Shown here: positions 4,590 to 60,424 of the stretch, in pieces
Layout of the letters: each line of letters begins with the position of its first letter
Position numbering within the stretch: position 1 is the first letter of the stretch
Origin: Octopus vulgaris
Lineage: Eukaryota
Reading direction: 5' to 3'
Length of the DNA: 64,000 nucleotides
Assembly: GCA_951406725.2 (NCBI GenBank)
Contig: OX597827.1
Location: 80,848,001-80,912,000, forward strand
Notes under the pieces: generated by a model
Told to the model about the DNA's origin: nothing
What the model saw: only the letters and a program-made list of their open reading frames with translations
Database searches by the model: none
Made by a program: the position numbers and the translations under genes

Positions 4590-5250
4590 TACGTCCATTT
4601 TTCCATGCTTGCATTGGCCGGATGAGTCTTTTCCAACACAACATTCTTGCATTTCTTTGTCATCTCTTTCGTGCTGTTCTACTTCCTGGGATCAACCTTC
4701 ACTACTTCTGCCCATCTCTTCCTTGGTCAGCTTTCCTCTTCATCTTCTGACGGTTTCCTTTCAAAGGAATCTCTAACTATCTCTCCATCCCCTTCTCACC
4801 ATTTATACGCATTACACATCCATACAAGTGTAACTCTTATTCTTGAAATACAACAACTGATCCCTCTTGGACCCAGTTTTTTCTCCTCATCTATGCCTTG
4901 TCATTCAGTGGAGCATGGATACCTCACCCCCCCCCCCAACATATATTCATCCTCTGCATCCAATGTCCATGCAGCATCACAGTTTGTCCACATGTCTCAT
5001 ACAATTTGTCTTTTGCTAAGAGAGAGAATCTTCTTGCAGTTAGCAGAGATAATAGCTCTGTGAATGTTCCTACCCCATTCTTATTCCAGCCATGACCATC
5101 CTCCCCCACTATTGATCAAATACTTTAGATAACAGACGCCATCAATTACTTCCGTAGACTCCTTCAGTATTACCACAAATGTATTTTATTGAACCACAAC
5201 TGACCACACTTACGCCTCGGCCACAAAATCTTTATTTACTGTCAGTCTGC
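4590..5250 (-). mobile_element. Degenerate 3' portion of an RTE-type LINE
   Basis: Minus-strand fragments such as FTELLSLLTARRFSLLAKDKLYETC match the better-preserved copy at 52320 (FRKLLPLLVTKGLSLRVKCRLYDAC). It shares the tail CGTCCATTTTTCCATGC. Confidence 0.6.
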
Positions 5251-5360
5251 TTACTCTGGCCCTCTTGGGTTACCATAGAGCACAATGGGTAGATTATTTG
5301 CCATTTCTATCTTACTCTTTTTCTCTATATTGTTTATTGGCCATTTTCTTGTTGTATGCA

Positions 5361-5410
<50 letters not shown>

Positions 5411-5416
<6 letters not shown>

Positions 5417-5626
5417 CAAAATGGGACAAGAACGCAAAACATCCAGATAGACGATACGAAAAAACAAGGACAGGTCATTCAAAGCCTTTAATCTTCAGTC
5501 AAGAACCGGATCATCCTCGCAATTTCGGCTGGTTCTGGACTGAAGATTAAAGGCTTCGAATGACCTGTCCTTGTTTTTTGTATCATCTATCTGGATGTTT
5601 TGTGTTCTTGTCCCATTTTGTATTTT
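5411..5626. repeat. Foldback (long inverted repeat) element inside (TA)n; Penelope-like terminus
   Basis: Arms of about 95 bp (5411-5507 and 5531-5626) with a few mismatches and a 23-bp loop. A single arm of the same family occurs at about 34195-34310. Confidence 0.85.
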
Positions 5627-5686
5627 TTATATATACATATATATATACAGCAGCATACATACACTTTATTCTCTTTCTCTCTCTCT

Positions 5687-5736
<50 letters not shown>

Positions 5737-7066
5737 GCACATATATGTGTATATATATATATATGAATGTATGCATTATATGTACACACACATTATGTGT
5801 GTGTGAGTATGTATGGTCATGTGGTTAGGAATCTGCCTTTGTAATAACATATTTCAGGGTTCATTCCCAATGTGTGGCTCTGTGGAGAGAATTCTGGTTC
5901 TTTGGCCCCAGACCAGCCAATTATCCTTTACAGTAGAATTTAGTAGAGAGAAAGAGTTTGAAGTCCATTCTCTTCCAATCCTTCCTTCTCTTACTGTTCG
6001 ATTCTCTTCCTTCTTTTATTCCCAGTAGTTCTTCATTCCTCTCTTTTATCGTATTACCATTGTCCCCAAATGGTGGTGGAAGAGGAGGGGTGGGTTCCCA
6101 TTTGTCAAATTTTGGAATTAAAGATGCAACAGGTTTCCTCATTCTTCATGGTGCTGGAGCTAATATTGTTGTGGACCATTCTCCTCCTCCTCCTCTTCCT
6201 CTTCTCTTGTCCCCACTGACCAATGATTGTGGACATTTGGTCTTCACCTTCTTGGTCTTGCTGCTACAAAACTAACAGCTGACCCCAACTCTTCTTTGCA
6301 CCATCAGTCTCAGCCTCTTACTTCCTGGGTCCATCATGTGACAGATCTCAGCAATGGTTCTGTGGTCTTCACATAATGAATGACTTAAAAATCATTACTG
6401 CTCCCCCCACCCCAGACCCTGTGTTCTTTTTCATGATCTCCATAGTAACCACCCTTCAACATTGCTCCCTAAAAACATAAACAAACTAGAGCTGAATGTC
6501 CCTTGCTGCCAGCTTTGCATTGTGTGGGTTCATAGATTGGGGTCACAGTCAATGTTTGGTGATTTCTGTTTTCCATTCTGTCTTTGCTTTATTCTTGAAG
6601 GGCCAAATGATGGCCCCATTTCATTTGCTTCAGACAATGAATGCAATGATGCCCAACACATCATCCAGGGGCTTCTCTCAAGCACCTCTTTGAGGGTACA
6701 TGCCAATTCTCTCCCAGTTTGCTCCTACATAAAATTCCTCAGGCAAGAAAACAGGGGCAGTTTATTAGGGCAGAGTCTTAGTTTGGACCCTACACAAATT
6801 CAGCCAAAACGATTCCTTCTCACTCATGTTGCTGCACAAAGTTTGAGATTGTGATGTGAGTGCTTCTGTTGTTGTTGTTATTGCTATCGTTACTGAAGTT
6901 GTTGTTATTGTTGTTGCTGTTGTTACTGTTGTTGCTGCTGCTGTCTTTTACTATCAAGCCTGGCATTAAAGTCTTTTATGTTTCAAAAGTCCTGAAGTTT
7001 TCATTCTTCAAAATCTCTTCATACCAAAGTAAAATATTTGTGTTTTATAATATTTATTGTTTGATC

Positions 7067-18370: not shown

Positions 18371-19393
18371 TCATCATCATCATCATCATCGTTTAACGTC
18401 TGCTTTCCATGCTAGCATGGGTTGGACGGTTCAACTGAGGTCTGGGAAGCCCGAAGGCTGCACCAGGCTCCAGTCAGATCTGGTAGTGCTTCTACAGCTG
18501 GATGCCCTTCGATGCGGTGCTGGCTACGGCCATGTTCAGATGGTTCTCTTATGTACTACCGGCACTGGTATCACAACTACAAATTCCATTGATGTTGATA
18601 TATATATATAGATAGATAGATACATAGATAGATATATACATACATATATAAGACAAGTGGTGTAGACAACAAACAGATGTATTAGTATAATGCTTGGGAA
18701 CTGAAAAAGTCTTTAATATTTTGAGCCTATGCTCTTCCACAGAAAGGAACACAGAAAGAAACAAGGAGAGAAAATAAAGAATGTGTAGTGGCTAGCGATC
18801 TATAATGACGAATGCCGGACAGAAGGGTCACACAGGAGAGCTATGGAGAAGGGGAGATAATAAAGAAGTGGTGATCCCAAAATGAAGGTGTGCTTGTATG
18901 TATGGAAGAAGGCTGGTGATCTTGACGTGTGCGTGTGTGCATGTGTAGGTGTGAAAATGTGGGTCTAGGAAGTGGTCAGTGCTGATGTGTGTGTGGTGGT
19001 GTGTTGTGATGTGTGGTATGGTGGTGTAAGGTGTAGTGGTGTTAGGGTGTTGGGAAGTGGGGGAGGCAAGGACTGTGTCTGTATATGAATATATATATAT
19101 CTGTACATGCATATATATAATATATATGTGTGTGCATATATATATATATATATATGTATATACATATATATACATACACATATGTATATGTGTATATGTG
19201 TATACACATATGTATATGTGTATATGTGTATATATATATATAATTATATATATATGTGTGTGTGTGTGTATATATATATGCGTGTGTGTGTGTGTGTATG
19301 TATATATATATATATAAATGTTCCAGAGTAACCACATAAATGTGAAATAAGGTGGAAAAATTAGTACTCAAATACCAGAGGTAGAGTAATATG

Positions 19394-19539
19394 CTTTATT
19401 AAAAAGCAGCAAAATTATCAAAACAAAACTGTTACCCATTCGTAGGACAGTTTTGTTTACAAACAAAACTGTCCGATGAATGGGACCGTGAAACTCTGAG
19501 TAACAGTTTTTGTGATGGTTTTGCTGCTTTTTAATAAAG
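19394..19539. repeat. Foldback element with hammerhead motif on + arm (19465-19510)
   Basis: Inverted arms start CTTTATTAAAAAGCAGC. The + arm reads AAAACTGT-CCGATGA-ATGG(GA)CCGT-GAAA-CTCTGAG-TA-ACAGTTTT. Same family as 57339-57515. Confidence 0.78.
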
Positions 19540-19587
19540 TATATACATACAAATATACATGTATAGATACATATATATACATATATA

Positions 19588-34194: not shown

Positions 34195-34763
34195 CAAAAA
34201 ATGGGACAAGAACGCAACAGGTGACAACAAAACATCCAGACAGTTGGATGATACAAAAAGGAACATGAAAAAACAAGGACAGGTCATTCAGAGCTTTCTT
34301 TCGTCAGTCGGGTTCCAGATTATCTTTGCAGTTTTGACTGGTTATACTCAAGACTGCTCCAATCTGGTGAGCCCCAAGGAAACTCTAAGCTAAGAGCACT
34401 AGATTCCTTGGAAGAAAGCAACAAATGTATAGTAAAATAAGGATGGAAAAAAAACCGGAGAAATGTTACACAAATACAAAAACAAATAACAGGACATTAA
34501 CAACAGGTGTCTTTCGACTAAGAATGAATCAAATTAAGCTGGCGTGTGTGAAAGTGAAGCCTTACGTCAGGGGCATAAGAGATGACAGGCATCAGACCTC
34601 CCCAATTCTTCTATACCTCTGCCTCTACCTCTCTCCCCTACCTCCACATGACCAGCCAAGCCTGACCTTTCTTTCTTGATTCGACTATCATCCGTGCAAC
34701 ATCTATATTCCTCCCTATGCCTGTCATCTCTTATGCTTCACTTCCACACACACCAGCTTAATT
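34195..34763. mobile_element. Penelope-like terminal fragment with internal inverted repeat
   Basis: 34195-34310 is homologous to the 5411 arm. An inverted repeat runs from AATTAAGCTGG...GCATAAGAGATGACAGGCAT (from 34532) to its reverse complement at 34717-34763. Confidence 0.55.
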
Positions 34764-53299: not shown

Positions 53300-54980
53300 C
53301 AGATGGGTTTGGAAAATTAAGTTGTACAGAATAATGAAAGAATACTAGTCCCAACTAGAGCTACGCAAAAAGTTGACCAAACCAGTAAAAGAATTCTAAG
53401 AAAAAAGGAAGAACAACAGAATAAACAAAGAGAAAGAAATGGAGCTCCATGGCCGATGCCTCCAACAATATATTGCTAGTAAAATTTGCTGGCTGATGGC
53501 TGACATGTGGGAATGTGAGACAAGAGACAGAAGTACTAATTGCAGCTGCTCAGGAACAAACTCTTAGAATAAATGTGACAAAGGTAAAGATCAACGAACC
53601 TCAGTCAGACAACAAATGTAGAATCTTCAGAAAAGGAGATGAAAGTATCATATTTTGAGTGAGTGCAAAATACTGACCAACAAAGGGGTATTCAGGGTGG
53701 GGGAAGCAAAACTTGCATTAAAAGTTACACTAATATTTCACAGAAACCACTACACCAAATGATATGAAATCTAAGGCAGAACAAAGAATGCATTGTCTGC
53801 TAATAATGAACTCCTTTTATGCAGGAATATTGGAGAATGTGACCGTGCAGGAAGACATATGCCAATGAGTATGTGATTTAGTCCATGCACAAGTCGATCC
53901 AAAGAGGATTTCAAGCATAGTTGGAGCATCCTTATGCACAGTTTATAACACCAAGAACAGAATGGACATGGGCAACGGCATTCAGAGGAAGTCTGGCAGT
54001 GGTGGGACCAACAAGAAGTGGAGTCCAAGACTTCATCAACACCCTCAAATCTAAAATTTCTATGGACCCAACCACATCGATGAGGAAGCTGGCTTTTGAA
54101 TTTGAAATGAAACCCAAGACCATCAGAACAGCTATGAATGATGACTCGGGCCTCAAGTCTTACACCAGGACATCAAGACAGAACCTATGAAAGCCAGAAT
54201 ACTGAAGAGATGCAAAAAGGCTCTTAAATACTTCAAGAAGAACGGGTCCACTGTGAAAATCTTCTCTGATAGAAAGATCTTCTCAGTGGATGCTGTTGTG
54301 AACTGCAGAAATGACCAGTACATTGTGGTATCAACAGCTGACATCAGGAACACCTTCAGAACAAAACATCCAGCCCTGGTCATGAAGCATGCCATCAACA
54401 AAACCTCCCAGCCCAACATCAACTCTCTGAAAGCTGCCATCAATGAGGAGTGGGCCAGGATATCGAGTGACTTTGTGGTGAAGAGCTGTGCAGAGTTGTG
54501 GAGGTCATCATTGCAACCAATGGAAGCCACATTGAATAAAGTATTTGTTTTGTAATGATATGTGAATGTTATTAACCTATTTTTGAATCACTAAATGTAT
54601 TGATGTGCGATGAGAGAGTTTCAAATGTTACAGCAATTTTGTAGGGATTTGCTTCCCCAGCCTGTAAGTGGAGACATGACTGTGTAGGTCAAAGAATATA
54701 TTGGAATGTTAGCTTCAAAACAACAGAAAAATGGTATGACCATGAATCAGAGGCTGTGAAAAAACATGAGAATTGCAAGATCTTGTGGGATTTCTCTATA
54801 AAAAACTGAACCTACTCTTGAAGCAAGAAAACCAGATATGATTAGAGAGGATTAAATAAACAAACAGTGTAAGATGATAGATTTTGCAATTTCCTCAGAG
54901 AGCAGTGTCAATTCCAAAGAAATTGCAAAAAAAATTGGGAAATATCAGGACCTAGCCAGAGAGCTGATGAAAATGTGGTA
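53300..54980 (+). mobile_element. R4/Dong-like non-LTR retrotransposon C-terminus (zinc knuckle + restriction-like endonuclease), split by a Tc1/mariner insertion
   Basis: Left part ETEVLIAAAQEQTLR...NKCRIF...ILSEC; right part KWRHD...KILWDFSIK...ARKPDMI...IDFAI...KYQDLARELMKMW. Confidence 0.78.
53693..54664 (+). mobile_element. Internally deleted Tc1/mariner element (DD37D/maT-like)
   Basis: TIRs CAGG(G/C)TGGGG(G)AAGCAAA, with TA on the right and TT on the left. Remnants include SMRKLAFEF...TIR (HTH), KIFSDRKIFSVD...NCRND and SLKAAINEEW. Confidence 0.85.
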
Positions 54981-56259: not shown

Positions 56260-57368
56260 AATATATATATATATATGTAAATATATATATATACATATAT
56301 ATCTGAGTGTATGTATGTATGTATATGCATCATTGCATTGGGAATGTAAATATCATGTGCATAAATTCTCGCTGCACAACTCCGGTGCACATATCGTGGT
56401 GACAATAATTGAATCTTTTTCTCTACACATGGTTATCCATGGGTGTGGGCATGTTTGTATGCATATGTGTGTATATACATGTGCATATGTGATGATGATG
56501 ATGGTAATGATGACAATATATTCACACACAAATATATATCTATATATAAACATATATATATTACACACACACATGTATATATGTATGTATATATATATAC
56601 ACACATACATACATACATATTCATATATTTATGTATTTATTCACATAGATGTGTGTATGTATATATATAAACACACACATACATATATATATGTACATAT
56701 ATGTATATCTTCATAAATATATACATACATATATACATGTATATATATATATACTAACACACTGATATATATATACTTGTGTATATGTATATGTGGGTGT
56801 GTGTATTTTCCTGTACACACACACACACACGTCCACCTAGGCCTTCAATTTGTGTGCAATAGTGCAAGGGTAAATTTTTGTTTCTAGTTACAAATCTTTT
56901 GAAACAGAATCTTGTTTGATTATTCTCTGGTTGGTGAGATCCCTGGGGTGGGTGGGGATGGGGGGAGAAGACTCCTAGGAGGAGAGACACAATGGGTGGT
57001 GAGACCCCTTCAGAGGGGATACTACATGATATGATGCGTTAACTCTTTGAGGCTCATTTATTAAGAAAGGGTTTTGGAAGATAACTCGCATTTGTTCATA
57101 CATTGTCAGAAAATTAGATACACACACACACACACACATATATACACTTACTTTATTGTGTTTTCACCTGTATACATATATATATATATATACATACACA
57201 CACACACACAGGTGTATAAGTATCTGTCTACCTATCTATCTATCTATCGGTCTGTCTATCTATATATATGAGTAACACATAAATGCAAAGCAAGGAGGGA
57301 GAAAAATGATACTTGAATACCAAAGGTAGAGTAATATGCTTTTATTAAAGCTGCAGGAAATCTTCCCA

Positions 57369-57410
57369 AACTGTTACTCGGAGTTTCACGTTACCGTTCG
57401 TCAGACAGTT
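57369..57410 (-). ncRNA. Complete type I hammerhead ribozyme motif
   Basis: AACTGT-CTGACGA-ACG(GTAA)CGT-GAA-ACT(CCG)AGT-A-ACAGTT: all conserved core bases, stems I-III and a GUA cleavage triplet. Confidence 0.8.
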
Positions 57411-57442
57411 GTGATCATACAGCTTCTTTGCTGTATAATCAC

Positions 57443-57484
57443 AACTGTCTGACGAACGGTAATGTGAAACTCTGAGTAACAGTT
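57443..57484 (+). ncRNA. Complete type I hammerhead ribozyme motif
   Basis: AACTGT-CTGACGA-ACG(GTAA)TGT-GAA-ACT(CTG)AGT-A-ACAGTT; predicted cleavage after A57478. Confidence 0.78.
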
Positions 57485-58188
57485 TGGGAAGATTTTTTTG
57501 CAGCTTTAATAAAAGTATCTGTACATCTATATATATTCTTACGACTCAGAAATTGGACCGATCCAGTGATAACAGAATTTTAAAGAAATTTCTGTCAGCT
57601 TGCTTCAAGACGTATGCTTTTAGTGATGAATTATATGTGGTTATTGACAATCTAAAGTCTATTTCTCAGCATATTTGGTATAAGAATTGTTTTCTTTTGC
57701 CCTTATTTATAAGCTGCTTATAATTTTCATCTTAAAAGGTATTTTTTAAATATGCTGGCCACTGATAAAGTTTTTTGAAAATTTTATCCTATATTAGATG
57801 TGTGTGTATATATATATATTGAAATCTTTCAACATCAATGGAAATTGTAGCTGAGATACCAGTGCCGGTGGCACGTAAGAGAACCATCCAAACGTGGCCG
57901 TTTCCAGCCTCGTCTGGCCCCCGTGCCGGTGACACGTATAAAGCACCATCCGATCTTGGCCGTTTGCCAGCCTCGTCTGGCACCTGTGCAGGTAGCACAT
58001 AAAAAGCACCCACTACACTCTCAGAGTGGTTGGCGTTAGGCAGGGCATCCAGCTGTAGAAATACTGCCAGATCAGACTGGAGCCTAGTGCAGCTTCCTGG
58101 CTTCCCAGACCCCAGTTGAACCGTCCAACCCATGCTAGCATGGAAAACGGACGTTAAACGATGATGATGATAATGATGATACATATAC

Positions 58189-58831: not shown

Positions 58832-58859
58832 AAGATGAAGATTCAGATAGAATCAGTGA

Positions 58860-60195
58860 CAGACAGGATGTGCAGTGTGTTCGTGTTCTTCATGGATCTG
58901 AGTTTTGGACTGACCACTGCCTAGTACGTGCAAAAGTGAAATTAGTCAGAAATCATAAAATCCGAGCTGTAGGGATTACCCTGCCTAAAAGACTGAATGT
59001 TGATCGTCATATGTGTAATAGTGTGAAGAGAACTTTACGAGAGGAAATGAATGCTACAGATATTGGGGAGGATTGGCTGACCCTTAAAAAGTCAGTTTAT
59101 GATATAGGCAAGAAAGTTCTGGGATTGATACAAAGAAAGCATCAAGATTGGTTTGAAGAAAATGATGAACATATAGATGATTTATTGGCTGATAAAAGAC
59201 GTACTTTGTCACGCTATTTGTCAGCAAAGCCACAGGAAAGGGAAGTGTTGCATAGGGAACTCAAGGACGTAAAATCACGTGTGAGGCAAAGGCTCTCTCA
59301 GATGAGGGATACGTGGCGGAGTAAGAAGGCTGACGAGATACAGGCGGCATCAGATTCCAATAACACAAAGCTGTTGTATGGTCTCTCGCGAGAAGTTTAT
59401 AGACTGACGTCTTCCCTGATGACACCACTTCGAAGCAGGGTTGGTGAAGAACTTCTTCGTGATTCACAAGGAATTCTGCGAAGGTGGCAAAAACACTTTG
59501 ATGAACTTTTGAATCAGCAGTCTGTAGTTAGTGAGGACGTTCTCAATCCCATCCCTGGATTACCTGTGAAGGCAGCACTCGCAGAACCACCAAAGTTGGA
59601 AGAAGTTGCAACGGCTGTCTCAAGGTTGAATAATGGGAAGTCTCCGGGTATGGATGGCATACATGCGGAGTTGTTACAGCATGGTGGTGAGAAACTTCTG
59701 CAGAAACTTCACTCTTTGTTTAGTAAGATATGGACTAGTGAATCTGTACCTGAGGACTGGAGAGATACAGTAATGGTGGTCCTGTATAAGGGAAAGGGCA
59801 ACATGAATGATTGTGGTAATTATAGGGGAGTATCATTGCTGTCTGTCATAGGAAAGGTTTTATGCAGGGTACTTCTGGATCGTCTGCTGAAATATGTTGC
59901 AGATTGTGTTCTTCCAGAAAGTCAATCTGGCTTTCGTGTGGGACGTGGCACTGCTGATATGATCGTTTCAGCTAGACAGCTTCAGGAGAAGTGTGTGGAA
60001 CAGGGTCTGGATTTATATCAGGTTTTTGTCGATCTGACAAAAGCCTTTGATACCGTCAATAGAAAAGCATTGTGGAAAGTCCTCCAGAAACTTGGGTGTC
60101 CTGAAAAGTTCCTTGCTTTGGTTAGGTCCTTTCATGAAGACATGAATGGTATGGTGAATGTTAGAGGGAAAATGTCGGAGCCCATTTCAATACAA
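58860..60195 (+). mobile_element. Internal fragment of an RTE (BovB-like) LINE ORF: end of AP endonuclease to mid reverse transcriptase
   Basis: 445-aa open frame with WTDHCLV, QDWFEEN, GKSPGMDGIHAE, NYRGVSLL, PESQSGFR and FVDLTKAFDTV; it breaks off before the QG and YADD motifs. Confidence 0.93.
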
Positions 60196-60424
60196 AATCT
60201 ACATTGATTTGGCCAATCCCAGAGAAACAAGCAGCCAATCTCTCTCTTTCTCTAATCAGGAAATGGAGAAAAAAACCTCAGATTAACAAACATATCGACT
60301 GGACCATCTTTATAACTTATTTTTTTAATTTTTTAACACAAAGCATGACATAACAAAATAGGTGACGTAGTATACACACATATTTTATCCCTTAGTCGGT
60401 TATAACAACCACTAAGTCTGTTTA

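Follow-up and report, generated by a model that had tools for sequence, protein, structure and literature searches.

Insertions of endonuclease-bearing (EN+) Penelope-like elements (PLEs) have been described as units in which an inverted, 5'-truncated copy adjoins the 5' end, a tail is present at one end and microsatellites serve as targets (PMC8557442, Craig et al. 2021). Inverted pLTRs, a tail, a target-site duplication (TSD) and head-to-head junction palindromes, the last of which were read as products of self-priming, have also been reported for PLEs (PMC3846280, Arkhipova et al. 2013), and the tail lengths given in print are 30-40 bp. For one PLE protein, studied in purified form, nicking and extension of the two strands of the target were shown, and reverse transcription starts at two sites bounding the tail; according to the same account, insertion does not need ribozyme cleavage, and the hammerhead of the element cleaves only in the presence of the protein (PMC11167929). 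More generally, PLE hammerheads are described as cleaving weakly, as dimers or only with protein (PMC6765202, PMC4209133, PMC11167929), dimer-cleaving forms being attributed to Lunse et al. 2017 (via PMC6765202). Pairs of minimal hammerheads lying ~100-700 bp apart on opposite strands were reported in 2014 (PMC4209133), and such close pairs on opposite strands are known from Schistosoma in that report.

Here, we analysed a 64,000-nt stretch of Octopus vulgaris DNA (the window) and identified a 248-bp unit at 57270-57517 that is composed of a palindrome and a 67-bp one-sided tail. These head-to-head, hammerhead-bearing repeat ends and their tail very probably stem from a single abortive event in which a Penelope-like retrotransposon with an endonuclease inserted into a (TA)-rich target. 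According to the predicted folds, neither ribozyme would form in the presence of the hairpin. The earlier note on this DNA had reported a 177-bp foldback with a 6-nt loop, which is indeed present at 57339-57515, while the tail at 57270-57336, the likely TSD and a second copy of the unit had escaped it (Table 1). The arms of the palindrome, 57339-57423 and 57430-57515, flank the loop at 57424-57429, have lengths of 86/85 bp and are 94% identical (80 of 85 aligned columns are the same, plus a 1-nt indel). Its RNA fold reaches -146.4 kcal/mol (z -29), and none of 200 shuffled sequences was equally stable.

Table 1. Coordinates of the insertion unit, its hammerhead motifs and the second copy in the window
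Feature	Positions	Strand	Basis and remarks
Likely target-site duplication, left copy, in (CTAT)n/(TA)n	57251..57269	.	17/19 bases equal to 57518-57536, last 12 exact
3' tail of 67 bp, following the pLTR end of the left arm and missing from the right arm	57270..57336	-	Likeness to the second copy; high family depth
Left arm: 5'-truncated pLTR-like segment, AATAAA at its end, then tail	57337..57423	sense on -	Arm alignments
Minimal type I hammerhead	57369..57410	-	Descriptor; predicted cut 57375/57374; stem III self-duplex -7.8 kcal/mol
Loop of 6 nt where the arms meet head-to-head; lies 13 nt upstream of stem I, with a centre hardly shared by other copies	57424..57429	.	Fold and depth
Right arm: inverted, tail-less, 5'-truncated pLTR-like segment	57430..57517	+	Arm alignments
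Minimal type I hammerhead, mirror copy	57443..57484	+	Descriptor; predicted cut 57478/57479
Likely target-site duplication, right copy	57518..57536	.	Paired with 57251-57269
Second, decayed copy	19322..19541	.	70-bp tail on the left (19322-19391); the palindrome turns ~6 nt upstream of stem I and has 2-4 nt at its centre

The segments 57251-57269 and 57518-57536 form the top-scoring repeat pair around the ends of the unit and are likely a 19-bp TSD. As a control, one of 34 comparable 19-mers ending in (AT)4 had a similar match 200-300 nt downstream, a count that possibly includes the site itself. The duplication is graded as likely rather than proven because its low-complexity 19-mer has 12 matches at two or fewer mismatches within the window; it is therefore supportive of an insertion, not proof of one.

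The second copy was found by BLAST against the window, and its tail and ends were taken from a four-arm alignment. Both window copies have the tail on the left arm only, lack it on the right arm and have (TA)n on their flanks, and their right arms stop at the same base. The tail at 57270-57336 is 80% identical over 71 columns to 19328-19395. The flanks of the second copy show a weak 21-bp match (17/21, 4 mismatches). With the EN+ PLE insertion units described in PMC8557442 and PMC3846280, the points of likeness are the inverted pLTR segments, the tail at one end, the TSD-like flanks, the (TA)n target and the hammerhead within the pLTR. Head-to-head, inverted 5'-truncated pLTR segments occur in both window copies as well as in three contigs of public sequencing runs (X1-1, X1-2 and X8-29), and the (TA)n flanks carry TSD-like pairs (17/19 and 17/21) whose weight is lowered by their low complexity. 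On the other hand, the arms here are shorter than 90 bp and contain no open reading frame, and the one-end tail, at 67-70 bp, exceeds the published range of 30-40 bp.

Under this explanation, the GIY-YIG/RT protein of the element would have nicked the two target strands ~19 nt apart, and cDNA synthesis would have started at the tail end and halted just past the ribozyme, the mirror arm arising in the same event. Fold-back copying of the fresh cDNA is the favoured route to the mirror arm, given the symmetry and very short loops of both window copies and the locus-specific arm identity. Alternatively, the second nick could have primed the mirror arm at the boundary between pLTR and tail, a route that would be favoured by the fact that both tail-less arms end at the same base. 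The copy at 57270-57517 would then have decayed neutrally, leaving 5 substitutions and 1 indel between its arms.

The relationship among the four arms bears on when the mirror arm was made. Identity between arms is 94% within the copy at 57339-57515 and 90% within that at 19322-19541, but 74-78% between copies, and the informative columns group arms by locus at 9 positions and across loci at 0. Since arms resemble their own partner rather than the other copy, a new mirror arm likely formed with every insertion, although later gene conversion could also have produced the within-locus likeness. The centres differ too, in both the length of the loop and its distance from stem I (Table 1). Stems I and III are invariant among the intact arms and stem II is kept with a different loop, and no compensatory changes in the hammerhead stems were found among the four window arms. 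The second copy is less well preserved: the hammerhead of its + arm (19467-19508) carries C instead of U at core position 4 (U4C, at 19474), and its - arm has a 16-bp deletion through the hammerhead core.

Contigs of four public runs were aligned to 57210-57780 (571 bp, a stretch that includes a neighbouring repeat) at 80% likeness, giving 3417, 2621, 277 and 74 related contigs. In run X1, the summed depth of the bin covering the tail and arm end exceeds that of a contig from a single locus by a factor of ~4,800-6,400; this is not a copy number, and we read the family size only as 'thousands'. Depth in this run drops about 100-fold upstream of stem I, from 271,552 in the bin 57450-57469 to 3,064 at 57410-57429, and is ~200-250 at 57422 and 57431, so that the centre has ~0.1% of the peak depth. 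Loose contig ends with low agreement (0.43-0.48) are found at 57438 and 57443. Both the drop and the loose ends fit turn points that vary near stem I, and clipping of diverged subfamilies would have the same effect. X1-1, X1-2 and X8-29 cross both arms with 17, 14 and 9 gap bases, respectively, and 15 of the 99 joints listed run into the right arm from either the tail or the left arm, at many different positions, and some of them may be mapping effects.

These data also bear on whether the palindrome is a self-propagating non-autonomous element of MITE-like or SINE-like type that was copied whole with both ribozymes. Such an element would account for two copies in 64 kb with the same layout and both ends, and for the recurrence of palindromic copies in two organisms, as seen in the public-run contigs. 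However, centres that differ in length and sequence, the nearly private centre here, the heterogeneous joints and the sorting of arms by locus (9 to 0) are not what copying of a whole palindrome predicts, and a one-sided tail is not a feature of DNA transposons. Symmetric terminal inverted repeats with a uniform interior, as in MITEs, were not found. We consider this origin improbable.

Other repeats are present in the window. Directly to the right of the unit, 57545-57780 is a different high-copy repeat with a summed depth of up to 155,000 in X1; contig X19-14 has it twice in opposite orientation, and it may be another inverted-end family, in which the type I descriptor found no canonical hammerhead. 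A SINE-like repeat at 57835-58160 has an internal ~63-bp tandem duplication and six more loci in the window (74-91% identity). A MITE-like hairpin at 5459-5579, which is not a microsatellite, has 49-bp arms and a 23-nt loop, with one related half at 34267-34353.

The earlier note had also placed a full type I hammerhead in each arm, and this was borne out. From the centre outward, each arm presents stem I (6 bp), CUGACGA, stem II (3 bp, capped by GUAA), GAAA, a stem III that is nearly palindromic and the GUA site; the type I elements (CUGANGA, GAAA, NUH and stems I-III in type I order) are thus found on both arms. Within the window, a type I descriptor with a 6-bp stem I found nothing but these two arms (+ core 57449, - core 57404), and it matched none of 100 dinucleotide-shuffled windows; when stem I was shortened to 4 bp, 1 of 100 had a match. 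As the two matches represent one motif and its mirror, they were counted as one event. Rfam, the search that had been suggested for these motifs, returned no hammerhead match at the gathering score, nor among 44 matches at E<=10; this weighs little, since the minimal PLE forms were found by descriptors in the literature. The miRNA-precursor matches in Rfam were below their gathering scores and were rejected as generic hairpins.

Minimal type I hammerheads with a small palindromic helix III have been described from PLEs (PMC4209133, Cervera and de la Pena 2014), and the motifs here share their CUGANGA/GAAA/NUH core and weak stem III. Compared with the PLE consensus in that paper, they differ in the 3-bp stem II, the A10.1-U11.1 pair and the absence of the 9/10.1 bulge. 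The shrimp PLE hammerhead listed there has the same architecture, including the lack of the bulge, A10.1-U11.1 and A at the cut site. Together with the anatomy of the unit, this architecture supports the proposal of the earlier note that Penelope-type minimal hammerheads lie in an inverted pLTR pair. In both arms, stem II has no more than 3 bp, with A-U at 10.1/11.1; the + arm also has one G-U pair, made from G-C by a C-to-T change at 57463. The isolated motifs fold marginally (-1.1 kcal/mol at a probability of 0.0003, and -3.6 kcal/mol at 0.004), and single arms fold no more stably than shuffles (z 0.04-0.71). Stem III can form a self-duplex (8 bp, one mismatch at the centre; -7.9 and -7.8 kcal/mol), and this predicted pairing between two copies is as expected of dimer-type hammerheads.

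Core position 4 sets the copy at 57339-57515 apart from most of its relatives. At 57450 and its mirror 57403, C accounts for 59% (X1), 79% (X8), 92% (X20) and 75% (X19) of the depth (mapping favours the reference letter), and the C majority is present in both organisms covered by the runs. C4 and G5 form a CpG, and one inserted contig string looks like what decay of this CpG on the opposite strand would give. The control CpG in stem II, 57463, reads C in 76-97% of family depth. Judged on 40 of the 134 variant rows, the canonical U4 core here may have arisen from CpG decay in the source copy, or may mark a minority subfamily. U4C was reported to lower hammerhead activity considerably in vitro (PMC3088659), and C at this position is not among the PLE hammerhead rows of PMC4209133 that were compared. 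The earlier note had named a lack of excess core conservation and of stem covariation across family copies among the outcomes that would refute its reading, and the data go part of the way towards it: the family has a U4C majority and varied centres, one arm of the second copy has lost 16 bp through the core, and the four window arms show no compensatory change.

A type I hammerhead in a short, non-coding, high-copy repeat is also characteristic of non-LTR retrozymes (PMC7229834; bioRxiv 10.64898/2026.07.22.740005), which have been proposed as PLE derivatives in the latter work. Two independent or tandem-derived retrozyme monomers could have come to lie head-to-head, their likeness being due to subsequent gene conversion or hairpin repair. 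Retrozymes are defined as 150-450-bp tandem repeats in PMC7229834, whereas the two family loci in the window are 38 kb apart, both inverted and tailed, with no tandem copy. One TSD-like pair encloses the whole unit, and the same layout is found at the second locus. We hold this origin to be very unlikely.

A different proposal concerns function rather than origin. The earlier note suggested a self-silenced ribozyme in which cleavage competes with the hairpin and A-to-I editing tunes the outcome. Its premise is confirmed by the layout, as a read-through transcript in either direction carries the antisense arm first. The canonical core kept in both arms is consistent with function, and perfect hairpins are known ADAR targets, with Penelope repeats heavily edited in lizard (PMC5625713). 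However, forcing the hammerhead on the full palindrome costs 74.8 (+) or 67.9 (-) kcal/mol, with stem I pair probabilities below 1e-42, so the modelled fold leaves no real competition. Nor does editing close this gap of 68-75 kcal/mol: with all 22 or 27 A's of the antisense arm unpairable it is still 41.9 and 33.3 kcal/mol (33-42 after maximal modelled editing), and with them read as G it is 66-68 kcal/mol. The ribozyme itself, with 14 A in 42 nt, would be exposed to editing as well. Moreover, the antisense arm would be made first and zip from the 6-nt loop, the monomer fold is marginal in a class whose members are reported to cleave weakly, as dimers or only with protein, the family majority carries U4C, reported to lower activity considerably, and no host exon was detected nearby by Pfam in 107 frames of at least 70 aa, among which short exons would be missed. 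We therefore hold a working, editing-released ribozyme to be very unlikely. Only a transcript starting within the centre would carry a free motif, which would probably still require a partner (PMC6765202).

A read-through host transcript would instead form a ~87-bp hairpin, a plausible ADAR or RNAi substrate, not a cleaving or switchable ribozyme. The Xenopus Harbinger palindromes described as targets of ADAR hyper-editing (PMC5625713) are similar in being ~200-bp, self-folding repeats with a short loop; they differ in origin, editing is not described there as a ribozyme switch, and the octopus unit is known as a stretch of genome sequence. Two runs that we guessed to be RNA contain family contigs (277 and 74), but strand, RNA ends and expression level are not recorded in contigs, which speak neither for nor against expression. 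Counted on family-level contigs only, the places with A>G and T>C variants are similar in number between these runs (11/10 and 15/8) and the DNA runs (13/9 and 15/6).

An assembly or amplification fold-back artefact is hardly credible: no single public-run contig covers 57339-57515 end to end, but the arms differ at 5 sites and 1 indel between TSD-like flanks, a second copy lies in the window and other palindromic copies in two runs, and contig X1-3 matches the right arm and its flank (57457-57606) with 0 differences, X1 possibly being the source sample.

We regard the unit at 57270-57517 as real and ordinary, and very probably as a member of a known insertion class, with Neptune, Hydra and Penelope/Poseidon as candidate clades. 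No PLE RT or GIY-YIG domain linked to the unit was found by Pfam scan of 107 of the 200 filtered window frames (>=70 aa), and pattern scans of metagenome contigs, viral contigs, prokaryote genomes and plasmids gave no autonomous parent; two metagenome matches lay inside one AT-rich open reading frame lacking hammerhead context and were dismissed as chance. In the Naiad/Hydra consensus file of the PMC8557442 supplement, the published octopus Naiad had no relevant match for five family motifs or four neighbour motifs, short strings for which line breaks may hide matches. The family was not found in searches of the published literature, which lie outside Repbase and Dfam.

In the same Pfam scan, only RVT_1 scored above the cut-off, and short exons would be missed. 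It belongs to a 457-aa LINE reverse transcriptase frame at 58834-60207 (+) (RVT_1 at 58834-60204, E 3.9e-16), which is not a PLE RT; its relatives carry endonuclease domains (36-58% identity), the matches are metazoan, and the named relative with the highest identity comes from an octopus (54% identity, covering 58% of the query). A frame at 54145-54555 (+), with no Pfam match, resembles what we take to be a decayed fragment of a Tc1/mariner-type transposase.

The position of the turn close to stem I raises a further idea, which we put forward only tentatively and think rather unlikely. If cDNA synthesis ends only a few bases from the 5' edge of stem I, the hammerhead would act as a structural landmark for the turn and not as a cutter, and most copies would tolerate C at core position 4 because of this role. 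The outcome would be thousands of ~90-bp hairpins feeding host A-to-I hyper-editing.

By itself, the unit at 57270-57517 matters little, being a decayed stump of a known retroelement class. The family of such stumps is a natural dataset, in which the cDNA start (two fixed ends) and the turn (variable, near stem I) are recorded in each copy. It bears on how PLEs make inverted ends and on what their hammerhead does: a clustering of the turns at stem I, together with an ancestral U4C core, would speak for a role of the motif other than catalysis.
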